A DNA stretch of 64,000 bases from Deltaproteobacteria bacterium (GCA_016177705.1 JACOUT010000009.1:48057-112056); one strand, 5' to 3'. Counted from the stretch's first letter, positions 6,621 to 47,863 are shown. The notes: a model not told the origin generated them from the sequence alone. Numbers and translations: made by a program.

Positions 6621-7238
6621 ATGAGCGCGACCGCCCCCCAGGTGCTCACCGCCGCGGCGCCGCACGACGCGCTGCGGGCGCTGTTCGACGCCGCGCGCGC
6701 AGGCGACGCCGCCGCGCTCGAGTCGCTGTGTGTGCAGATGCGCCCGCGCCTGTACCGCAGCGCCTGGGCGGTGCTGCACGACGCCGATGAGGCCGACGAC
6801 GTGGCGCAGGACGCGCTCGTGCGCGCCGTCACGCGTCGCTTCCTCTTCCTCGGCAGAGGCAGCGTCGCTGGTTGGATGACCCGCATCGCGCTCAACCTGG
6901 CGAAGAACCGGCTGCGCGACGGCCGCCGCCGCCGCCAGATCCTGGACGACGCCTCGCCGGAGGAGCGCGCCTCTCGCGGCGCCGCGCCGACGGCGCCAGT
7001 CCGAGCCGACGACGTTGCCGCCACCCTGCAGGCGCGCCGTCGGCTCTCCGCCGCCGTGGCCGCGCTGCCCGAGCGGCAGCGCGAGGTGGTGGAGCTGCAC
7101 GTCTCGGCCGGCCTCGACTGGGGCGACGTCGCCGAGGCGCTCGGCATCAGCGAGGCCAACGCCCGCATGACCTACTCGAACGCCAGGAAGAAGCTCTTGT
7201 CCGCGCTCGGCGCCACCGGCGCATCGGAGGAACCATGA
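6621..7238 (+). CDS. ECF (sigma-24-type) RNA polymerase sigma factor
   Basis: Region 2 (RLYRSAWAVLHDADEADDVAQDALVRA) and region 4 (LPERQREVVELHVSAGLDWGDVAEALGISEANARMTY). The stop overlaps the next ATG (ATGA). Confidence 0.8.
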   Translation: MSATAPQVLTAAAPHDALRALFDAARAGDAAALESLCVQMRPRLYRSAWAVLHDADEADDVAQDALVRAVTRRFLFLGRGSVAGWMTRIALNLAKNRLRDGRRRRQILDDASPEERASRGAAPTAPVRADDVAATLQARRRLSAAVAALPERQREVVELHVSAGLDWGDVAEALGISEANARMTYSNARKKLLSALGATGASEEP

Positions 7239-7606
7239 GCCGCCATGACGACGTGCCCGCCGCGCTGGCGCCGCTGGCCGAACCGCCGCCGCCGCCGCGT
7301 CGCACCGACGCTGCCTTTGCGCGCGCCGTCGCCGACGGCGTCAAGCAGCGTCGCGCGCCCTTCGCGCTCTGGCTCGGCGCGCCTGCGCTGGCGCTCGCTG
7401 CCGCCGGCGTCGCCATCGTGGTCGCGGGCCCAGACGGTGGGCGGGTCGCCGTCGACGCGGGCGTGACCATCGCGCGCGCCGCCGCGGTCGAGGTCGACTG
7501 GGCCGAAGAGAGCGACTTTGCGATCCCGTCGCTGGACGGGTCGACCGATGAGGAGCTGGCGCGGCTCGATCGCGCCCTCGACGAGGCCATCAAGCTGCGC
7601 CGGTGA
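7234..7606 (+). CDS. anti-sigma factor (single-pass membrane protein)
   Basis: 123 aa, translationally coupled to the sigma factor gene. One TM helix (FALWLGAPALALAAAGVAIVVAG). Confidence 0.6.
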
Positions 7607-8608: not shown

Positions 8609-9007
8609 CTAGCTCGGAAACGGCGCCTCGTCGACCGCCAGCGCGAACAGCACCGCCGCGACGGCCTCCTTGTGGTCGAGCAGCACCGCGCGCGCCGTCG
8701 CCTCAGGACCAAAGGCGAGCGCGCCGAGCGCGTCGGCGTCGAGCGCGACGCGCAGCGCCAGCACGCTCCCGCCGTGGCGCCGCAACAGCGTCTCCGCGTT
8801 CCGGTAGAAGCGCTCCGCGCCGTCGTTCGACAGCAGCAGGATGCGCGATACCCGTTCGCCGCGCGCCTCGCCGCGCGCCTCGTCCGCCAGGCGCTGGCCA
8901 CGCGCCGCGTTGGCCAGGCTGCGCTCGGCGCCCTCGAGGCCGCGCACGAGCTGCCCGGCGTCCGCGGCGGCCCGCAGCGCCCGCGCGATGGCGTCGCTCA
9001 TCGCCAT
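8609..9007 (-). CDS. hypothetical protein, possibly an L7Ae/L30e-like fold
   Basis: C-terminal 132 aa of ORF 8609..9421 ([31 protein letters not shown]...[21 protein letters not shown]). The upstream part of the ORF is Arg/Pro-rich and probably non-coding. The start could alternatively be 9139. Confidence 0.3.
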
Positions 9008-9206
9008 CTCGGCGACGCGTAGCTCGCTCCTTGCCCACAACGGCGCTGACGCGCCAGCCAACGCGGCGTGCACCCGTGTTGCGCGCGGGTCACCTTCGAC
9101 GAGCTTCGGCAGGCGCAGTGCGGTCACGTCGCCGAGCATGGCACACGCGCACTGCCGACCAGGGGTGCAGGGGAGCAGGCGCCCGCCGACGGCGGCGCCG
9201 AGCGGG

Positions 9207-10919
9207 TCACGGCACCGGCGCCGCGCTCGGGCCGCGCCGCGCCACTGCGCTCGCGTCGAGGCTGACGGCGGCGGCCAACTGTCCCGGCGTGAAGGGCTTG
9301 GCCAGGAAGGTCGCCCCCTTCTCGAGCAAGCGCGCGATGGCGCGCGGATCGGGGGAGTAGCCGGAGACCAGCACGACCCGCGGCGCTCGTGGCCTGGCGA
9401 GCAGCTGATCCGCCAGCTCAATGCCGCTCATGCCGTGCAGGTTGACGTCGGTGATGACAATGTCGATGGCATCCAGCGCGGTGGCGAGCAGCGCCTCGGC
9501 GGAGTCGAAGGTGTGGGGCGTCATGTCGGCAGCGCCGACGATCCGCGCCATCAGCGACCGAACGCGCGCATCGTCGTCGACGATGGCCACCGATCGTGGC
9601 CTGTGGTCCTCGTGGGATGTCGGCGGGATGTCGGCCGCGGCTCTCGCCCCTTCGGCTGCGAGCGGTAGCAGGACGGTGAAGGTGCTGCCGCGCCCAGGGG
9701 TGCTGTCGACGTCGATGCGGCCGCCGAGGCTGGCGGTGACGCCGAAGACCGTGGACAGCCCGAGCCCCGTCCCCTTGCCGGGCGCCTTGGTGGTGAAGAA
9801 GGGCTCGAACATGCGCTGCCTCACCTCGTCGGTCATGCCGGCGCCGGTGTCCGCGACGACGAGGCGGCACACCCGGCCAAGTTGCGCGTCGTCGCCGCGC
9901 TCCACGCGCACGCGCAGCTCGCCCTTGCCCGCCATGGCGTCACGCGCGTTGACGGCCAGGTTCATCACGATCTGCTCGAGCTGGGACGCCGACGCGATCA
10001 CGACCAACGGGCCGCCGCTCGTCTCCATCGTCACGCGCACCTGCTTGCCGACCAGCCGCTGCACGATGTCGCCCATGGCCTCGACCACGGCGCACGGGTC
10101 GAGCTCCATGGTGCGGACCACGTCGCGACGGCTGAAGGTCAGCAGCCGGCTCGTGAGCGCGCTGCCCCGCTCGGCGGCCCCGATGATGTCTCGCACGTCC
10201 TTGGCCGCTTCGCCTTGCAGGCCCGCCTCCTCCTCGAGCAGGGAAGCGCAGCCCCGAATCACCGTCAGCAGGTTGTTGAAGTCGTGCGCGACGCTGCCAG
10301 CCAAGAGGCCGCGCGCCTCCATGCGCTGGCTGTGCTCGAGCTTGAGCGCCAGTGCGTCGGCGCGCTCGCGGGCGGCGCGCGCGTCGACGCTGCGCTGCTC
10401 GAGCTCTCCCAGCAGCCGCCGCACGCTCACCGACGTCGCGATCGCCATCGCGCCCCCCAGGGCGCAGAGGAACGCGCCCTCGGCGTACACGTTGATGAGC
10501 GGCTGCACCGGCTCGGACGAGCTGGGTCCGAAGGCGAGCACCGCTTCACCCGCCAGCGCGACCGCGACCACGACGACCACGTGCTTCGGCGGCAGGATCA
10601 TGGGCGACAGCATGACGCCGAGCACGACGTAGAACGGCGCGTTGCCGGGGTTGCCTCGCAGCAGGCCGGCGGCGACGACGCCGGCGGTGCCGAGCAGGGT
10701 GAAGCCATAGCCGGCGGTCAGCACGTGGCCGCGGCGCGCGGCGACGATCAGCGCGCCGACCAGGACCAGGCCGACGACGTTGCCGACCACATCGGTCCAC
10801 TGGCCTGTCACGAGCGCCCAGCCGCCGAAGCCGGCCGCCTGGGCGAGGATGACCCAGCCGGCGCCCTGCGCGGCGCGCTGACGACGAAGCTGCTCGGTCC
10901 GGGCGTAGTCGGTGGGCAC
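9207..10919 (-). CDS. hybrid sensor histidine kinase (TM sensor, HisKA, HATPase_c and a C-terminal receiver domain)
   Basis: 570 aa. H-box HDFNNLLTVIRG. G-box GTGLGLSTVFG. Receiver VAIVDDDARVRSL…ITDVNLHGMSGIEL…AKPF. Confidence 0.9.
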   Translation of the reverse strand: MPTDYARTEQLRRQRAAQGAGWVILAQAAGFGGWALVTGQWTDVVGNVVGLVLVGALIVAARRGHVLTAGYGFTLLGTAGVVAAGLLRGNPGNAPFYVVLGVMLSPMILPPKHVVVVVAVALAGEAVLAFGPSSSEPVQPLINVYAEGAFLCALGGAMAIATSVSVRRLLGELEQRSVDARAARERADALALKLEHSQRMEARGLLAGSVAHDFNNLLTVIRGCASLLEEEAGLQGEAAKDVRDIIGAAERGSALTSRLLTFSRRDVVRTMELDPCAVVEAMGDIVQRLVGKQVRVTMETSGGPLVVIASASQLEQIVMNLAVNARDAMAGKGELRVRVERGDDAQLGRVCRLVVADTGAGMTDEVRQRMFEPFFTTKAPGKGTGLGLSTVFGVTASLGGRIDVDSTPGRGSTFTVLLPLAAEGARAAADIPPTSHEDHRPRSVAIVDDDARVRSLMARIVGAADMTPHTFDSAEALLATALDAIDIVITDVNLHGMSGIELADQLLARPRAPRVVLVSGYSPDPRAIARLLEKGATFLAKPFTPGQLAAAVSLDASAVARRGPSAAPVP

Positions 10920-13139: not shown

Positions 13140-15065
13140 ATGACGTCAACCAGCACCGACACCACGAGCAAGACCAACGCGCCGCCCGTCCTTGGCGGCA
13201 ACGGGAGCCCCATGACGAGCGGGAGCACCAGCAAGAGCGGCATCGCCAAGGCGCCGGGAGGCACCGTCAGCGTCGCGAGCCTGTTCCTCGATCGCGTCGC
13301 TGCCACCCCCGACCGCAAGGCCTTCACCGTGCCGAGCGCCGGCGGTTGGAAGACGCTCACCTGGAAGGAGACGCGCGAGCGCGTCATGGCCATCGCGTGC
13401 GGCCTGCGCGCGCTCGGCCTCGAGAGCGAGCAGCGCTGCGCCATCCTGTCGGGCACGCGGCTCGATTGGATCCTCGCCGACATCGGCATCTTGTGCGCGG
13501 GCGGCGCCACTACCACCATCTACCCCCAGAACACGCCGGATGAGTGCGCCTACATCCTGAACGACTCGAACACCGTGCTCGCCCTCGCCGAGGACGACAA
13601 CCAGGTGGCCAAGCTGGTCGCCAAGCGCGCCGAGCTGCCCAAGCTCAAGCACGTCATCACCTTCGACGGCAAGCCGAGCGCCGATGGCTTCGTGCTCACG
13701 CTCGCCTCGCTCGAGGAGAAGGGCCGCGAGGCGCATGCCAAGGCGCCCGACGATTTCGAGAAGATCGCGCGCGCGGTCAAGAACGACGCGCTCGCCACGC
13801 TCATCTACACCTCGGGCACCACCGGCAAGCCCAAGGGCGTCGAGCTGACCCACGACTGCTGGGTGTACACGGCCGAGGCGCTCGAGGCCGCCGGCATCCT
13901 CGGCCTCGATGACGTGCAGCTCTTGTGGCTGCCGATGGCGCACTCCTTCGGCAAGGTGCTCGAGGTCATCCAGATCAAGCTGGGCTTCGAGACCGCGGTC
14001 GATGGGCGGCAGGACAAGCTCGTCGACAACCTGGCGGCCATCAAGCCGACCTTCGTCGGCGCCGTGCCGCGCGTGTTCGAGAAGGTCTACAACAAGGTGA
14101 TCGCCGGAGCGAAGGAAGGCGGCGGCCTCAAGTACGCCATCTTCAAGTGGGCGGTGGAGAACGGCAAGCAGGCTTCGGCGCTGCGCCAGCAAGGCAAGCA
14201 GCCCGACGGCTTCCTCGCGTGGAAGCTCGGCATCGCCGACAAGCTGGTGTTCTCCAAGCTGCGCGACAAGTTCGGCGGCCGCCTCCGATTCTTCGTCTCG
14301 GGCAGCGCGCCGCTGTCGCGTGAGGTGCACCAGTTCTTCGACGCCGCCAACATCCTGATCCTCGAGGGCTACGGCCTGACCGAGACCAGCGCGGCGTCGT
14401 TCGTCAACCTGCCGAACAAGTTCCGCATCGGCACCGTGGGCCCGCCGCTGCCCGGCACCGAGATCAAGATCGTGCCCGAGGACGGCGAGATCCTGATCAA
14501 GGGTCGCGGCGTCATGCGCGGCTACCACGGCCTGAAAGAGCAGACCGCCGAGACGCTGCGTCCCGACGGCTGGCTCGCCACCGGCGACATCGGCGAGTTC
14601 GTCGACGGCTTCCTGCGCATCACCGATCGCAAGAAGGATCTGATCAAGACCTCGGGCGGCAAGTACGTCGCGCCGCAGGCGGGCGAGGGCAAGCTGAAGG
14701 CGATGTGTCCGCTGCTCAGCCAGGTGGTGGTGCACGGCAACAACCGCCAGTTCTGTTCCATGCTGGTCAGCCTCGAGCCCGAGGCGGCCAAGAAGTGGGC
14801 GGCCGAAAACGGCCTCGGCGCGCTCTCGTACGAGGAGCTGACCAAGAACGACGCGATGAAGGCAGCCATCCAGGGCTACATCGATCAGCTCAACGCCGGC
14901 CTGGCGCGTTACGAGTCCATCAAGAAGTTCGCCATCCTGCCGAAGGACCTCACCGTCGAGGACGGCGATCTCACGCCCACCTTGAAGCTCAAGCGCAAGG
15001 CGGTCGAGACCAAGTACAAGGAGCTGCTCGACAGCTTCTACGTCGGCGCTGTCGCCGACGTGTAG
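13140..15065 (+). CDS. long-chain fatty-acid–CoA ligase (AMP-dependent synthetase)
   Basis: 641 aa with the IYTSGTTGKPKGVELTH AMP-binding motif and LEGYGLTETS. Confidence 0.88.
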   Translation: MTSTSTDTTSKTNAPPVLGGNGSPMTSGSTSKSGIAKAPGGTVSVASLFLDRVAATPDRKAFTVPSAGGWKTLTWKETRERVMAIACGLRALGLESEQRCAILSGTRLDWILADIGILCAGGATTTIYPQNTPDECAYILNDSNTVLALAEDDNQVAKLVAKRAELPKLKHVITFDGKPSADGFVLTLASLEEKGREAHAKAPDDFEKIARAVKNDALATLIYTSGTTGKPKGVELTHDCWVYTAEALEAAGILGLDDVQLLWLPMAHSFGKVLEVIQIKLGFETAVDGRQDKLVDNLAAIKPTFVGAVPRVFEKVYNKVIAGAKEGGGLKYAIFKWAVENGKQASALRQQGKQPDGFLAWKLGIADKLVFSKLRDKFGGRLRFFVSGSAPLSREVHQFFDAANILILEGYGLTETSAASFVNLPNKFRIGTVGPPLPGTEIKIVPEDGEILIKGRGVMRGYHGLKEQTAETLRPDGWLATGDIGEFVDGFLRITDRKKDLIKTSGGKYVAPQAGEGKLKAMCPLLSQVVVHGNNRQFCSMLVSLEPEAAKKWAAENGLGALSYEELTKNDAMKAAIQGYIDQLNAGLARYESIKKFAILPKDLTVEDGDLTPTLKLKRKAVETKYKELLDSFYVGAVADV

Positions 15066-15085
15066 CTCAGGCGCGGGCACCGACC

Positions 15086-16444
15086 ATGTCGCGCTGCCCG
15101 TTGCCGCTGTGCCTCTGCTGCGGCGTCCTCGCCGGTTTGGGCTGCGCGCCCACGCTGGTCGAGGACGCGCAGCTTCTGGGGCCGTTCACAACGCAAGGAT
15201 CCTTCATCGTCGACGCGCACGGCGGGCGCCTCCTGTTGCGCGGCGCCAACCTGTCGCAGACCGCCAAGAGCGAGCCCTACCACCCGGCCGAGCTCGAGGG
15301 TGAAGGGCGCGCGCTCGTGGCGGCCCATGGCCCGATGGCGATCCGCTACCTGACGTCGTGGGCGGCCATCGAGCCAGATGAGGGCGCGTACGACCAAGCG
15401 TACCTCGATGGGATGGCCGAGCGCCTCGGCGCGCTCGGTGACGACGGCCACCTGGTGGTGCTCGATCTGCACCAGGATCTGTTCGGCGTCGGTTTCGCCG
15501 GCGCCAACGGCGCGCCCCGTTTCGCATGCGACGAGAGCGCGTATGCGGCCTACACGCCGGAGTCGCCGTGGTTTCGCAACTACTACGATGAGGCGGTGCA
15601 GGGCTGCTTCGACGCGCTGTTCGCCGATGAGGCACGGCTGCGCCAGATGGCGCGCGCGCTGCGCTCCGCGGTCGACGCGGTGCAGGCAGTGGCGCCGAAC
15701 GCGCTCGTCGGCGTCGACCTGCTGAACGAGCCGCACCCGGGCAGCCGCGCGCCCGCCGACTTCGACGTGCTGTTGGCGCGCTACTACCAGATCGCGGCCG
15801 AGGAGCTCGACGGCACCGGCCTGGTCTTGCTGTTCGAGCCGAACGTGCTGCACAACCTGGGCGAGGCGACCGCGCTGTCGGCCGCGCCCTCGAGCGCGTC
15901 GCTGTACGCGCCGCACCTGTACCCGGCCGACGTCGAGCTCGGTCGCTACACGGACGTTAGCGCGCTGGCCGGGCTGCTCGCTGACGACGCCGCCGAGGCC
16001 GCGGCGCTCGGCACACCGCTCGTCATCGGGGAGTACGGGCCGAAGCTGGACGACCCCGCGGCGGTGCCCTTCGTCGAGGACGCGCTCGCCATCCTCGACG
16101 AGAGCTTCGCCGGCGCCTTCTCCTGGGACTGGTCGGCGGCGAGCGACCGCGGCCTGCTGCACGAGGGCGCCGAGGAGGTGCGTCGCGCGGAGCTGCGACC
16201 GCACGCCCGCCGCGTCGCCGGTGCGTTGGTGCGCCACCGCTTCGATCCGGCGAGCGCCACGCTCGAGGTCGAGTGGGCGGACGACGGCGCCATCGGCGCC
16301 ACCGAGATCGTGGCGGCGGGGTGGGGGACGCCCACGGTCGTCGAGCTGAGCGACGGCGGGGCCGCGCTCGAAGGGGCGCTGTTGCGGGTACGCGCGAGCA
16401 CTCAGGTCGAGACCCACCGCGTGGTGGTGTCGTTCGGCGAGTAA
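15086..16444 (+). CDS. glycoside hydrolase family 5 lipoprotein
   Basis: Start at the internal ATG with lipobox MSRCPLPLCLCCGVLAGLGC. GH5 catalytic motifs LLNEPH (acid/base Glu) and VIGEYGP (nucleophile Glu). Confidence 0.7.
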   Translation: MSRCPLPLCLCCGVLAGLGCAPTLVEDAQLLGPFTTQGSFIVDAHGGRLLLRGANLSQTAKSEPYHPAELEGEGRALVAAHGPMAIRYLTSWAAIEPDEGAYDQAYLDGMAERLGALGDDGHLVVLDLHQDLFGVGFAGANGAPRFACDESAYAAYTPESPWFRNYYDEAVQGCFDALFADEARLRQMARALRSAVDAVQAVAPNALVGVDLLNEPHPGSRAPADFDVLLARYYQIAAEELDGTGLVLLFEPNVLHNLGEATALSAAPSSASLYAPHLYPADVELGRYTDVSALAGLLADDAAEAAALGTPLVIGEYGPKLDDPAAVPFVEDALAILDESFAGAFSWDWSAASDRGLLHEGAEEVRRAELRPHARRVAGALVRHRFDPASATLEVEWADDGAIGATEIVAAGWGTPTVVELSDGGAALEGALLRVRASTQVETHRVVVSFGE

Positions 16445-16533
16445 GCTTCGTCCGCGAAGTCGATTGTGGGAAAGAGCGGTTGCCAGCGCTCGCCGGCTCC
16501 TTCTAAGGTCCGCGCGCACCTTCCGGGGATACC

Positions 16534-17459: not shown

Positions 17460-19103
17460 ATGAACCCGACGGATCCGCTCTCACCGGGCGAGCTGGCGCT
17501 CGTCTCCCATGCGCCGACCGACGTCGAGCGCGGCGCCACGCCGCCGCTCGCGTCGCCCGGCGTGGGCATGGCGGCGACGCGCGTGCCGAGCGGGCCGAGC
17601 CTGCCCGACGCGCATCCTGCGAGCATGCACCTGGCGGCGGCCAACAGCGGGCTCGCAAACCCCTTCTTGGCGCCGCTCGACTTCTCCTCGGTGATGGCGT
17701 CGCCGAACGCGCCTGCCTCAAGCATGCCGGCGAGCTTCTCGGTGCCGCTGTTGCGCGACGACGTCCCCGCGGCGCCGGCGTCGCCGCCCGCACCTGCCGC
17801 CGCGCCGACCCCCGCTCCGCCGGTGCTCGACCTCGGGACGCTCGGGTTTGCCCCCGTGCCGGCGCTCGACGCGCCGGCATCGAGCGGATCGTTCGACGCG
17901 CACGCGCTCAAGCGCGAGTTTCCCATCCTGCAGGAGCGCGTGCACGGCAAGCCGCTCGTCTGGCTCGACAACGCGGCCACCACGCAGAAGCCGCGCATGG
18001 TCATCGAGCGGGTGAAGACCTTCTACGAGCGCGAGAACTCCAACATCCATCGCGCGGCGCACGCGCTGGCTGCTCGCGCCACCGACGCCTACGAGAGTGC
18101 GCGCGAGACGGTACGGCGCTTCCTGAACGCCTCGTCGGTGCGCGACGTGGTGTTCGTGCGCGGCGCCACCGAGGGCATCAACCTGGTGGCGCAGGCGTGG
18201 GGCAGGCGCAACGTCAAGGAGGGCGACGAGATCGTCGTCACCCACCTCGAGCACCACGCCAACATCGTGCCGTGGCAGATGCTGTGCAAAGAGACCGGCG
18301 CCATCCTGCGCGTCGCGCCCGTCGACGACACCGGGCAGGTGCTGCTCGACGACTACCAGCGGCTCTTGAGCGAGCGCACCAAGCTGGTGGCGCTGCCGCA
18401 GGTGTCGAACGCGCTCGGCACGGTGACGCCGGCCGCGCGCATGATCGAGATGGCGCATCGCCACGGTGCGCGCGTGCTGCTCGACGGCGCGCAGTCGGTG
18501 TCGCACCTGCGCGTCGACGTGCAGCAGCTCGGCTGTGACTTCTTCGTCTTCTCGGGGCACAAGGTGTTCGCGCCTACCGGCATCGGTGCGGTGGTGGCGC
18601 CGGCCGCGCTGCTCGACGAGACGCCGCCCTGGCAGGGCGGCGGCAACATGATCCAGGACGTCACCTTCGAGCGCACCGTGTACCAGCCGGCACCGGCGCG
18701 CTTCGAGGCCGGCACCGGCAACATCGCCGATGCGGTCGGGCTCGGCGCCGCGCTCGACTGGCTGTCGCGCGTGGGGCTCGAGAACGTCGAGCGGCACGAG
18801 CACGAGCTGCTGCGCTACGGCACCGAGAAGCTGCTCTCGGTGCCGGGCCTGCGCATCATCGGCACGGCGCCGGAGAAGGCGGGCGTGCTCTCCTTCGTCA
18901 TCGACGGGCACGACACGCAGACCATCGCCAAGGCGCTCGACCAGGAGGGCATCGCGGTGCGCGGCGGGCATCACTGCGCGCAGCCCATCCTGCGGCGCTT
19001 CGGACTCGAGAGCACGGTGCGTGCCTCGCTGGCGCCGTACAACACGCTCGAGGATCTCGACGCGCTGACGGCCGCTTTGTGTAGGATGGTGGGCGTCCGC
19101 TGA
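17460..19103 (+). CDS. SufS/CsdA-like cysteine desulfurase with a ~150-aa disordered N-terminal extension (putative encapsulin cargo)
   Basis: The class-V aminotransferase core starts near ALKREFPILQERVHGKPLVWLDNAATTQKP and includes HHANIVPWQ and FSGHKVFAPTGIGA. The N-terminus is Pro/Ala/Ser-rich low complexity. Confidence 0.85.
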   Translation: MNPTDPLSPGELALVSHAPTDVERGATPPLASPGVGMAATRVPSGPSLPDAHPASMHLAAANSGLANPFLAPLDFSSVMASPNAPASSMPASFSVPLLRDDVPAAPASPPAPAAAPTPAPPVLDLGTLGFAPVPALDAPASSGSFDAHALKREFPILQERVHGKPLVWLDNAATTQKPRMVIERVKTFYERENSNIHRAAHALAARATDAYESARETVRRFLNASSVRDVVFVRGATEGINLVAQAWGRRNVKEGDEIVVTHLEHHANIVPWQMLCKETGAILRVAPVDDTGQVLLDDYQRLLSERTKLVALPQVSNALGTVTPAARMIEMAHRHGARVLLDGAQSVSHLRVDVQQLGCDFFVFSGHKVFAPTGIGAVVAPAALLDETPPWQGGGNMIQDVTFERTVYQPAPARFEAGTGNIADAVGLGAALDWLSRVGLENVERHEHELLRYGTEKLLSVPGLRIIGTAPEKAGVLSFVIDGHDTQTIAKALDQEGIAVRGGHHCAQPILRRFGLESTVRASLAPYNTLEDLDALTAALCRMVGVR

Positions 19104-19114
19104 CGGCCCCACCC

Positions 19115-20038
19115 ATGAAGCTCCTCTCGCCCGTCGATCTGCAAGCGCTGCTCACCACCGACGTCGACATCGTCGACGTGCGTGAGCCCGCCGAGTGGCT
19201 GACCGGGCACGTGCCGGGCGCGCGCCTGGTGCCGCTCGCGCAGCTGCGCGCCGATCCCAGAGGTGCTTTGCCGCGCGACAACGTGGTGTTCATCTGCGCC
19301 AAGGGCAAGCGCAGCGAGACGGCCGCCGAGGTGGCGATGCAGATCGGGCGCGCGCAGGTCTACAGCTTGTCGGGCGGCACTGACGCCTGGCGCGCCGCCG
19401 GCCTGCCCATCGTCATGCCCGAGGCGCAGCGCCTCGCCCGAGGGGAGGGCGAGCCCGTGGCGCCGGTCGCCGAGCCCGAGCTGGACGCGCTGGTCGGCGC
19501 CAACCTGCACGCGGAGCGCAGCGCGCGCGGCCTGTCGCTCGACGACCTGGCGCGCGACTCGGGCGTCAGCCGCACGCTGCTCGGCCAGATCGAGCTCGGC
19601 CGCACCGTGCCGTCCATCGGCGTCATCTGGAAGATCGCGCAGGCGCTCGGCGTGCCCTTCTCGACGCTGTTGGCGAGCGCGGCGCCGCGCGTCGGCACCA
19701 CCATCACCGAGCGCGAGCAGGCAAAGAAGCTGACCTCGGCCGACGGCCGCTTCTCGTCGCGTGCGCTCTACCCGCTCGGCGACGCGCACGCCGCCGAGTT
19801 CTACGAGCTGTGGATGGCGCCGCACAGCCGCGAGGACGCCGAGCCGCACCGCCCGGGCACGCGCGAGAACCTGATCGTGGTCTCGGGCAGGCTCGAGTTG
19901 AAGGTGGGCAACGACAGCTTCCAGCTCGGCAAGGGCGCGGCGGTCAACTTCTCCGCGGATCAACCGCACAGCTACATCAACCGCTCCGGCGAGGAGTGCT
20001 GGATGTACCTGGTGATGAACTACGCCGGCCGCAAGTAG
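19115..20038 (+). CDS. rhodanese-domain, HTH_XRE and cupin fusion protein (putative sulfur-responsive regulator)
   Basis: N-terminal rhodanese (VDVREPAEWLTGHVPGARLVP…ICAKGKRS, active-site Cys). Middle XRE HTH (LSLDDLARDSGVSRTLLGQIELGRTVPSIGVIWKIAQALGV). C-terminal cupin. Confidence 0.7.
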   Translation: MKLLSPVDLQALLTTDVDIVDVREPAEWLTGHVPGARLVPLAQLRADPRGALPRDNVVFICAKGKRSETAAEVAMQIGRAQVYSLSGGTDAWRAAGLPIVMPEAQRLARGEGEPVAPVAEPELDALVGANLHAERSARGLSLDDLARDSGVSRTLLGQIELGRTVPSIGVIWKIAQALGVPFSTLLASAAPRVGTTITEREQAKKLTSADGRFSSRALYPLGDAHAAEFYELWMAPHSREDAEPHRPGTRENLIVVSGRLELKVGNDSFQLGKGAAVNFSADQPHSYINRSGEECWMYLVMNYAGRK

Positions 20039-20051
20039 CTCGCTGCACCTT

Positions 20052-20765
20052 TCAGCGCGCGCGCACGAAGAACGAGGCGAAGTACTGCTCGGCGTCCTTC
20101 GGCACGATGCGCAGCACGTCCGGTGTGCGCGACAGCGGCTCGCCGGCGTCGGTGGCGGCGCGCCACAGGCGAAACCAGACGCTCCGGCTCGACAGCAGCA
20201 CGCCCGCGAAGAAGCCGAACCAGCCGCCGGGCAGCGGGAGCAGCGAGCCGATGCCGACGTACGGGCGCGCGCAGCTCGGGCACCACGGGCGCGTGTTGAT
20301 CAGCCAGTTGGTCTTGGTGAGGTCGAGCGTCGCGTCGCAATTGACGCACAGGACCTGGAAGCGCACCGGCTCGCGCTCGACGTGCTTCGACAGGTCGAGC
20401 TCGAGGCCCGAACCATCGGGCGCCGCCTCGCCGACGCGGATCTCCTCGACGACGTCTTTGGCAAGGCGCGCCAGCTCGCCGCCATCGAGCCACGAGCAGC
20501 CGCACGAAGGACACAGGTCGACGAGCACGCCGCGCGCGCGCACCTCCGCGATGCGCGCGTCGCAGCTCGGGCAGGGGCCACGGGGGACACCGGCGCGCGC
20601 CAATTCCAGCAAGACCTCGGCGCGGATGCCGAGGATATCGACGAACAGCCGCTGCGAGGTCGCGGTGTCGAGCAAGCGCCCGTGACAGCGCGGGCACACG
20701 TCCTCGGCGAGCGCGCCCGAGCCCCTTCGTAGGTCGGTGCCGTCTCGGGGGCAGGTGTGCGCCAT
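20052..20765 (-). CDS. zinc-ribbon (zf-TFIIB-like) domain protein with a C-terminal membrane segment
   Basis: CPRCHG…, CPSCDARI…, CPSCGCSWLDGGEL… and CVNC…CPSC motifs. C-terminal hydrophobic stretch WFGFFAGVLLSS. Confidence 0.6.
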   Translation of the reverse strand: MAHTCPRDGTDLRRGSGALAEDVCPRCHGRLLDTATSQRLFVDILGIRAEVLLELARAGVPRGPCPSCDARIAEVRARGVLVDLCPSCGCSWLDGGELARLAKDVVEEIRVGEAAPDGSGLELDLSKHVEREPVRFQVLCVNCDATLDLTKTNWLINTRPWCPSCARPYVGIGSLLPLPGGWFGFFAGVLLSSRSVWFRLWRAATDAGEPLSRTPDVLRIVPKDAEQYFASFFVRAR

Positions 20766-47323: not shown

Positions 47324-47863
47324 GTGACGACGACGTACTGGGGCTGCTCGGTGATCGCGCTGACCGCGTTGCTCGCTTCCGGGGCGCGCGCGGCGGGCCC
47401 CGTCGCGGACGCGCCGCCCGAGCGCCCGGCGATGACCGAGCAGACACCGGCGGAGTCGAGCGCGTGGCTGATCAGCGTGGGCGCGCTTGGCGGCGCCGTC
47501 GGCTACGGCCTCGGCGTCATCGCGGCGACCGTAGCGACCAACGGCGCCAACCCGGTCAACGCCGCCCTGCAGCACCCCGGCGAGTGGGGCCTGATCCTCA
47601 CCGGGCTCTTGGTGCCGATTCCGATGACCGGGCTGATGGCGGGCGCGGTCACGCTGCTGGCACGCGACTGGGTGACCGGGCTCGCCGTGGCCGCCGCCAC
47701 CGCCGGCGTTGCTTTGGTCGGACACGGCACGCTGCTGGTCATCGGCGCCGCGGGCATCGGCGAGTGGGGGTGGCAGATCGAGGGGGTCGCGCTGGTCGTC
47801 GTCGGGGCGCTGGTGGCGACCGCGGGCGGTGCCACCGCCGGGCTGGTGCAGCTCGTGGAGTAG
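47324..47863 (+). CDS. hypothetical Gly/Ala-rich membrane protein
   Basis: Signal or TM N-terminus and several glycine-zipper TM segments. 179 aa. Confidence 0.45.
   Translation: MTTTYWGCSVIALTALLASGARAAGPVADAPPERPAMTEQTPAESSAWLISVGALGGAVGYGLGVIAATVATNGANPVNAALQHPGEWGLILTGLLVPIPMTGLMAGAVTLLARDWVTGLAVAAATAGVALVGHGTLLVIGAAGIGEWGWQIEGVALVVVGALVATAGGATAGLVQLVE

Follow-up and report, generated by a model that had tools for sequence, protein, structure and literature searches.

We analysed a stretch of 64,000 nucleotides from a Deltaproteobacteria bacterium (GCA_016177705.1 JACOUT010000009.1:48057-112056; the window), in which a gene at positions 19115-20038 encodes one polypeptide made of a rhodanese domain, an XRE-type helix-turn-helix (HTH) and a cupin domain. 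The gene closes the operon of a Family 2A encapsulin, behind the genes of the shell (enc) and of the cargo cysteine desulfurase (CD). We propose that the protein is a local sulfur-responsive transcription factor, in which the tethered rhodanese would feed sulfane sulfur to a sensor cysteine; judged from the sequence comparisons described here, we give this reading a probability of about one half. The domain architecture, its conservation, the synteny with enc and CD, the single origin of the fusion and the conserved pair of cysteines are shown by these comparisons.

The pair consists of C61, the catalytic cysteine of the rhodanese, and C295, which stands at the start of the last cupin strand in the motif E-C-W (codon 19997-19999). 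A search of 5.8 billion proteins returned 1343 matches to the fusion protein; the best 120 of these, with identities from 100% down to 55%, were analysed, and 117 of the 120 were full-length proteins with Rhodanese, HTH and Cupin domains. In these 117 sequences C61 and C295 are the sole conserved cysteine columns, and both are invariant. C295 is also present in two fusions of metagenomic origin (L087 and L089), and overall in 120 of the 120 fusions examined. Among 33 unfused relatives cysteine never occurs at position 295 (0/19 from genomes, 0/14 from metagenomes), and the proteins with another residue at this position include XRE-cupin proteins that share an operon with a separate rhodanese. 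H237 is enriched in the fusions (110/117) and variable in the other relatives. The ABIDG/JCHEF topology of the cupin jelly roll and the strand assignment in the AlphaFold2 model lead us to infer that C295 adjoins the turn that holds H237, on the end of the barrel distant from the metal site. The restriction of C295 to the fusions, together with the invariance of C61, suggests that the domains are functionally coupled.

The gene is a single open reading frame (ORF) of 307 codons on the + strand, running from ATG to TAG without an internal stop. Its GC content is uniformly 0.96 at third codon positions (GC3) and 0.49 at second positions (GC2), as expected of a real gene in surrounding sequence of 72% GC. 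The gaps between the shell and CD genes and between the CD and fusion genes are 23 and 11 nucleotides, respectively, all three genes lie on the same strand, and the CD carries an N-terminal extension that is without annotation. In sharing one operon with an SrpI-like shell and an N-terminally extended cargo CD the fusion gene qualifies as a Family 2A accessory gene. Because the next gene (20052-20765, - strand, 237 amino acids) is convergent, the fusion gene is the end of a three-gene operon. The original prediction, that one polypeptide combining a rhodanese with an active-site cysteine, an XRE HTH and a cupin closes the encapsulin operon, was thus borne out by the gene order and by Pfam, in which each of the three domains exceeded its gathering score (Table 1).

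The loop around C61 (codon 19295-19297) has the sequence CAKGKRS (C61-A-K-G-K-R66-S67), and is a six-residue loop of the CX4R sulfurtransferase type, not of the CX5R type of Cdc25/Acr2; by its sequence it is the loop of single-domain sulfurtransferases of the GlpE, PspE and YgaP type. C61, G64, R66 and S67 are invariant in 117 of 117 full-length homologues, and the best relatives of the domain in the PDB are sulfurtransferases: 1YT8, 6MXV, YgaP (1e-18) and GlpE (6e-12). By all sequence signs the rhodanese is a single domain capable of catalysis, held at the N-terminus by a flexible tether. Homologues differ in both length and sequence of the linker that follows. The HTH is matched by HTH_31 (8e-11) as well as by HTH_3, the matches spanning residues 128-184; its recognition region, SRTLLGQIELGRTVPS, is invariant across 18 homologues, the invariant HTH residues being R153, L156, G157, Q158, E160, G162 and S167. 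In the cupin domain the positions H245, E251, H285 and N289 are kept with or without fusion to a rhodanese, as they are in 1Y9Q and SutR (see below), and the first three are invariant in the fusions. The AlphaFold2 model is confident within the domains, with a mean predicted local distance difference test score (pLDDT) of 84.6.

The fusion proteins form one tight family, because a library clustered at 50% identity leaves only two full-length fusion representatives. The other strong matches in this library were XRE-cupin proteins of ~200 amino acids or multi-rhodanese proteins, and its longer XRE-cupin matches, which were checked for distant rhodanese fusions, had no rhodanese. A scan of genomes, one per species, yielded 57 fusion loci, all 57 of them Myxococcota by record title, and the groups bearing the fusion were Myxococcaceae, Archangium, Polyangiaceae, Nannocystis punicea FL3, Labilithrix, Kofleriaceae, Sandaracinaceae and Bradymonadia. 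The end of CD was found -10 to +117 nucleotides from the start of the fusion gene in 45 of the 57 loci, with a 4-nucleotide overlap in nine of the 45. Two loci had CD fragments at a contig edge, in three CD lay 0.7-7.3 kb upstream of the fusion gene, and three further loci were uninformative. Overall, the fusion gene is located directly behind enc-CD in about 90% of the informative loci of the 57 species genomes. Wherever the contig reached far enough, enc was upstream of CD (38/38), and independent gene calls with Pfam labels gave the same order of SrpI-like, Aminotran_5 and Rhodanese-HTH-Cupin. In a neighbour-joining tree of the XRE-cupin part all fusions fall in one clade, with the solo cases scattered inside it. 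Since the solo cases scatter within a single fusion clade, the tree indicates that the fusion arose once, and that this one event was followed by occasional relocation.

Some of the loci that depart from the common arrangement deserve mention. An insertion of 6.3-7.3 kb separates CD and the fusion gene in L002:3654-10000 and L014:2660-10000, and in L002 a second copy of the final ~120 nucleotides of CD stands immediately ahead of the fusion gene (9868-9987), pointing to an insertion event. In the solo locus L046 a 375-amino-acid protein with a low-molecular-weight-phosphatase/arsenate-reductase-like domain is encoded upstream (8796-9923), with a 4-nucleotide overlap with the fusion start. An APH-type kinase gene lies downstream of the fusion gene in the solo loci L046 and L049, and a divergent PhyH dioxygenase gene accompanies the solo fusion gene of L084 (7066-7890). 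In L084 and L049 a -10-like TAGGGT/TACTTT box stands merely 7-9 nucleotides before the ATG, suggesting that these transcripts are leaderless; L051 also has a TAGGGT box, with a less clear start.

The regulatory part of our proposal is built on homology. Over residues 132-305 the protein is similar to 1Y9Q, an XRE-cupin regulator of Vibrio cholerae (sequence E 3.6e-28; TM 0.80 and 27% identity by Foldseek), and residues 123-303 align with E. coli SutR/YdcN over the whole SutR length (31% identity, E 1e-28). The curated role of SutR is the regulation of sulfur metabolism (PMC5210515). The XRE-cupin factors of Pseudomonas are dimeric local repressors acting on palindromes beside their own genes, and six of the seven characterised XRE-cupin factors control the adjacent gene (PMC7901475). 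The nearest rhodanese-less relatives of the fusion protein (45-55% identity) are found in Alphaproteobacteria and as second copies in Myxococcota. Their neighbours are a 547-amino-acid multi-rhodanese protein, MetN, a YeeE-type sulfur transporter, phosphoadenosine phosphosulfate (PAPS) reductase, a Cys/Met enzyme dependent on pyridoxal phosphate (PLP), Rrf2 regulators and CD, and in L074 a divergent enc-CD operon. The homology to SutR and 1Y9Q and the sulfur genes beside the rhodanese-less relatives give good grounds for the regulatory role in sulfur metabolism that had been predicted from the window. Autoregulation of the compartment, predicted along with it, is a possibility for which no operator shared by the enc genes was found in 36 upstream regions.

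The two halves of the fusion also occur as separate genes. In a metagenome scan centred on enc (80 loci, 34 of them informative) the fusion directly followed CD in two of the 34, a standalone rhodanese about 50% identical to the fused domain directly followed CD in three (L092, L094 and L095), and rhodanese and XRE-cupin were present as separate genes in another three; one locus had an XRE-cupin gene only, and 25 had neither. On several shorter contigs an XRE-cupin gene was located just upstream of enc or divergent from it. The clearest unfused state is L096:6001-12066 (Ga0265316_10000641), where six overlapping or nearly abutting genes encode enc, CD, a 112-amino-acid rhodanese, a hexapeptide transferase similar to serine acetyltransferase, an XRE-cupin protein and a Cys/Met PLP enzyme. 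Because both parts occur unfused in related operons, the fusion can be said to join two recurrent Family 2A accessory genes, and the separate rhodanese, XRE and cysE-like genes anticipated in other Family 2A loci were indeed seen. L104 and L098 were listed with L096 for the six-gene operon, of which the XRE-cupin protein and the PLP enzyme are outside the published accessory components.

Desulfurase encapsulins store elemental sulfur and are induced by sulfur starvation (PMC10836720). According to our proposal a rhodanese following CD and an XRE-cupin regulator would have been joined, once, in Myxococcota, and the resulting gene would be co-transcribed with those of the shell and the cargo. 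The protein would be a SutR-like XRE-cupin transcription factor, binding DNA as a dimer like the characterised XRE-cupin factors, and repressing genes nearby, its own enc-CD-regulator operon being the most likely target. Possible donors of sulfane sulfur to C61 are thiosulfate, low-molecular-weight persulfides and the sulfur that leaves the compartment. This sulfur would then be relayed to, or bridged with, C295 of the same chain or of the partner subunit, and DNA binding would change as a result. Like that of the rhodanese-less relatives, the His-Glu-His pocket of the cupin probably still has the ancestral capacity to bind a metal or a small sulfur metabolite. Inferred in this scheme are the binding of DNA, the promoter that is targeted, the sign of regulation and the cysteine-to-cysteine chemistry, and the conserved cysteine pair is our one reason for proposing persulfide or thiosulfate sensing. 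A more far-reaching version, which we put forward tentatively, is that the protein represents a new class of sulfane-sulfur sensor, a transcription factor whose tethered sulfurtransferase would enzymatically load C295 or bridge with it through C61, and sulfur that leaves the encapsulin store, or is available to it, would be read out directly at the promoter of the compartment genes.

Several observations weigh against the proposed relay and its local action. Four of the 57 fusion loci (L003, L046, L049 and L051) are without enc-CD in the available upstream DNA, so that function of the protein does not depend on a place in the operon. Nor does the XRE-cupin module need a rhodanese in order to work, as its rhodanese-less relatives show. 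C295 is predicted to lie at the barrel end away from the metal site, and the arrangement of the domains in the AlphaFold2 model is uncertain (predicted TM score, pTM, 0.47). The palindrome upstream of enc in the window is shared with L001 and L002, its nearest relatives, but not with the rest of the family. Finally, no conserved operator beyond promoter and ribosome-binding-site (RBS) elements was found in 36 upstream regions of enc, where one was expected because the recognition region of the HTH is nearly invariant in the family. This last result leaves room for two other explanations, a passive fusion and regulation in trans.

It is possible, though we consider it less probable than a sulfur relay, that the protein is a passive 'Rosetta-stone' fusion. 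The rhodanese would then be an acceptor or mobiliser of sulfur and the XRE-cupin part an independent local regulator sensing a small molecule, no sulfur would pass between the domains, and the fusion would merely fix their co-expression. The occurrence of both parts as separate genes in related operons fits such an arrangement, as does the disordered and variable linker. That the rhodanese-less relatives adjoin sulfur genes and Family 2A operons implies that the pocket of the cupin would suffice as a sensor, and the His/Glu/His pocket is the same in the fused proteins. Independent modules would not, however, predict a cysteine at position 295 in the fused proteins only or the enrichment of H237 (110/117), and the fusion has persisted, never once split, throughout a clade of phylum level.

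Less likely still is regulation in trans, by which the protein would act on targets elsewhere and not on its own operon, the last position in the operon making its dose report the expression of enc-CD to other sulfur genes in a feed-forward manner. The solo copies far from enc-CD would be explained in this way, and in E. coli SutR is on record as regulating sulfur metabolism, not as repressing a single operon (PMC5210515). The missing operator points in the same direction, and was sought in several ways. Enumeration of palindromes in the 36 regions (half-sites of 5-6 nucleotides, spacers of 0-14) gave counts no better than those in shuffled sequences. An expectation-maximisation (EM) motif search of these regions, run at widths of 12-20 both freely and under a palindrome constraint, yielded one convincing motif, the RBS/start context cGAGGaGacCATG; its palindromic solutions scored low, were rich in CpG and were scattered in position, and their apparent excess over the controls, which were mononucleotide shuffles, is not trustworthy. 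Alignment of the upstream regions anchored on the -35 and -10 elements revealed promoter elements only. The 8-mers shared by the L084 solo promoter and the enc promoters were only GC-rich strings and the TAGGGT -10 element. The rhodanese-less relatives had lineage-specific palindromes (for example GCAGA..TCTGC beside cysH in L077 and L080), none of which was shared with the fusion loci. What speaks for control of the adjacent operon is the habit of the XRE-cupin factors, six of seven characterised (PMC7901475), the synteny with enc-CD of about 90%, and the tie of the unfused relatives to Family 2A operons as well, in several orientations including the divergent one.

The palindrome in Table 1 is the only candidate operator of the intergenic region upstream of enc. 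In many homologous loci a -10-like TAnGGT with a GC-rich stretch after it is found 25-45 nucleotides before enc. A scan with strict consensus sequences called no promoter and no useful terminator, and missed the candidate promoter of Table 1. The box TAVGGTNSSCGCG was considered as a regulon marker and dropped, its total count being not clearly above chance; it has two exact matches in the window, in the enc promoter and at 47521-47533, the latter apparently within long ORFs. Just before the enc start codon a C-rich tract and the following G-rich RBS form a short palindrome (e.g. TTCCCCGGGGAG), seen at 16510-16533 of the window and in the homologous 5' untranslated regions of L001, L002, L015 and L026, which might sequester the Shine-Dalgarno sequence by pairing, or else be bound by a protein.

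We regard it as improbable that the protein is an enzyme which does not bind DNA. An HTH-like domain and a 2-His-1-Glu cupin are the make-up of the non-haem iron oxygenases HppE, HEPD and MPnS, and such an oxygenase might work on a sulfur substrate together with the rhodanese, much as in the fusions of persulfide dioxygenase and rhodanese. Foldseek ranked HppE, HEPD and MPnS after 1Y9Q, the residues H245, E251 and H285 are invariant, and the rhodanese matches that of the persulfide dioxygenase-rhodanese fusion BpPRF (5VE3). The matches to the oxygenases are, however, poor (16-17% identity, root-mean-square deviation about 11 A, TM about 0.5), as compared with TM 0.80 at 27% identity for 1Y9Q; moreover, Pfam detects HTH_3 at 8e-13, the recognition-helix residues are invariant, and the DNA-binding regulator SutR is a clear homologue over its whole length.

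That three separate genes were joined by a frameshift or a missed stop is refuted: the ORF is continuous with a GC3 of 0.96 throughout, no stop is present near 19450 or 19700, where one had been named as a possible sign of an artefact, the 117 independent full-length homologues among the best 120 come from many assemblies and assemblers, and, with no support found, the single shorter GenBank relative (P0068, 207 amino acids) is an annotation from an internal start, its DNA encoding the rhodanese part in frame.

It is instructive to compare the fusion protein with the closest known systems. With XRE-cupin transcription factors such as ErfA, PsdR, PauR, PuuR and 1Y9Q it shares an XRE HTH (HTH_3/HTH_31) followed by a C-terminal Cupin_2 domain, and thereby falls in this family; these factors, too, are tightly linked to a metabolic operon, as local repressors. 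Unlike them, the fusion has an N-terminal catalytic rhodanese joined through a disordered linker, its cupin contains a cysteine specific to the clade, and its gene is the last in its putative target operon, not divergent or solitary. SutR keeps the His/Glu/His cupin positions and has the link to sulfur metabolism, but it is without a rhodanese, without a cysteine at the position of C295 and without a link to encapsulins. An orthologue would be expected to have two domains, about 180 amino acids and close similarity to SutR over the full length; with 31% identity, an extra N-terminus of 120 amino acids and another genomic context, the fusion protein is by sequence a relative of SutR and not an orthologue.

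The standalone rhodaneses of Family 2A operons occupy the same place directly after CD, whereas the fused rhodanese, about 50% identical to them, is covalently joined to a DNA-binding regulator. The standalone form was proposed to be a sulfur acceptor or remobiliser (PMC10836720; PMC8346489). The published Family 2A accessory components are this rhodanese and an acetyltransferase, and no regulator is mentioned (PMC8346489, PMC10836720, PMC8049743). With its rhodanese fused to an HTH-cupin, the protein described here corresponds neither to a standalone rhodanese nor to a serine O-acetyltransferase.

Two-cysteine chemistry underlies the persulfide sensors CstR, SqrR and BigR (PMC9774590). In these dithiol repressors contact with sulfane sulfur links the cysteine pair through di- to tetrasulfides, and the DNA is released. 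The fusion resembles these in being a transcription factor of sulfur metabolism with exactly two conserved cysteines, its sulfane-sulfur signal being a proposal. The likeness is one of logic, not of fold: those sensors have CsoR or ArsR folds, whereas the domains here are rhodanese, XRE HTH and cupin. In CstR, SqrR and BigR both cysteines belong to the DNA-binding protein and rhodaneses act in trans, whereas in the fusion one of the two is the catalytic residue of the fused sulfurtransferase. By analogy the fusion may work like the dithiol persulfide sensors, without being a member of that group. In BpPRF, CstB and Blh a rhodanese is likewise joined to a metal-binding partner in sulfur metabolism, and the rhodanese of the fusion matches that of BpPRF (5VE3/5VE4), but their partner is an enzyme of the metallo-beta-lactamase fold and they have no DNA-binding domain. 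HppE, HEPD and MPnS have the same order of an HTH-like domain and a cupin and the same 2-His-1-Glu site; they act on phosphonates without DNA binding, and the similarity of the fusion to them is far weaker than to 1Y9Q, which places it outside the HppE-like oxygenases.

The architecture is absent from the literature searched, but it belongs to a widespread conserved family that already carries, in the automatic JGI annotation, the label 'rhodanese-related sulfurtransferase/transcriptional regulator with XRE-family HTH domain'. This conserved, catalogued but uncharacterised family can be described as an XRE-cupin regulator of the SutR type with a built-in rhodanese and a cysteine of its own in the cupin. 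It physically couples an accessory rhodanese to a DNA-binding sensor, and the sensor cysteine appears only upon fusion. Aside from the fusion, Family 2A operons turn out to include XRE-cupin regulators of the SutR kind again and again, a recurrence that has so far been unremarked. C61, C295 and the His/Glu/His pocket make up a concrete hypothesis, open to mutation, of how the sulfur status of the compartment could be sensed, and the fusion offers a direct handle on the regulation of desulfurase encapsulins. If the relay were true, it would be a new bacterial design of persulfide sensing, with a sensor carrying its own sulfurtransferase; no desulfurase encapsulin would have had a regulator assigned to it before, and among the XRE-cupin factors the protein would be the first persulfide sensor coupled to an enzyme.

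Table 1. Features of the encapsulin operon and of the fusion gene (positions in the window; residues are those of the fusion protein).
Feature	Position	Strand	Evidence
Candidate sigma-70-type promoter, TTGCCA-18 nt-TAAGGT	16480..16509	+	read from the sequence; predicted
18-bp palindrome AAGGTCCGCGCGCACCTT, overlaps -10	16505..16522	.	repeat 16505-16516 / 16511-16522, 92% complementarity
Family 2A encapsulin shell (SrpI-like), 300 aa	16534..17436	+	PF19307 5e-98; NF041162 3e-140, exceeds cut-off
Cargo cysteine desulfurase (CD; SufS-like), 547 aa from first plausible ATG	about 17460..19103	+	NF041166 5e-245; Aminotran_5 2e-142
Rhodanese-XRE HTH-cupin fusion gene, 307 aa, final operon gene	19115..20038	+	
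Rhodanese domain, residues 7-94	19133..19396	+	Pfam PF00581, E 4e-16
Flexible interdomain linker, residues 104-120	19424..19474	+	AlphaFold2 pLDDT <50
XRE-type HTH, residues 133-184	19511..19666	+	HTH_3, E 8e-13
Cupin_2 sensor domain, residues 240-300	19832..20014	+	Pfam, E 2e-10

Some neighbouring genes were also recorded. A small conserved ORF of about 90-120 amino acids precedes the rhodanese-less XRE-cupin genes in several loci (L069 ~9727-10010, L065 ~9270-9480, L062, L064, L067 and L074:9618-9977); its product has the N-terminus (I/V)IDLSAYR(A/E)RR and a hydrophobic C-terminal stretch rich in Met and Trp, and a Pfam search with the L074 copy gave no match. In several Alphaproteobacteria an ORF of ~160-190 amino acids without a Pfam match follows the rhodanese-less XRE-cupin gene (L069:10655-11137, L065:10170-10688, L064:10624-11127 and L067:10677-11255). 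In L070:2151-5428, from a metagenome-assembled genome of Xanthobacteraceae, the genes downstream of CD and an XRE-cupin-only gene encode a DUF971 (GBBH-like_N) protein, a 578-amino-acid flavoprotein (FAD_binding_2 and Succ_DH_flav_C), a 77-amino-acid ORF and a HEAT-repeat protein. The architecture of the flavoprotein is, as we take it, reminiscent of AprA, and these genes may be a further sulfur-related cluster.

The convergent gene just downstream of the fusion gene in the window (20052-20765) encodes a protein with a Zn_ribbon_TFIIB domain. In L082, a locus with 59% identity (6939-7505, 8729-8995), an 88-amino-acid Zn_ribbon_TFIIB protein is also encoded just downstream of the fusion gene, and a convergent gene for a DoxX membrane protein overlaps the fusion gene at its 3' end. 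Directly upstream of enc in the window (15038-16444, + strand) lies a GH5 cellulase-like gene (Cellulase and Glyco_hydro_5_C), and the same gene is found upstream of enc in a close relative from RBG_16_71_12 (L167:1-973). The cellulase-like gene is unrelated to sulfur metabolism, and thus marks the upstream boundary of the operon.

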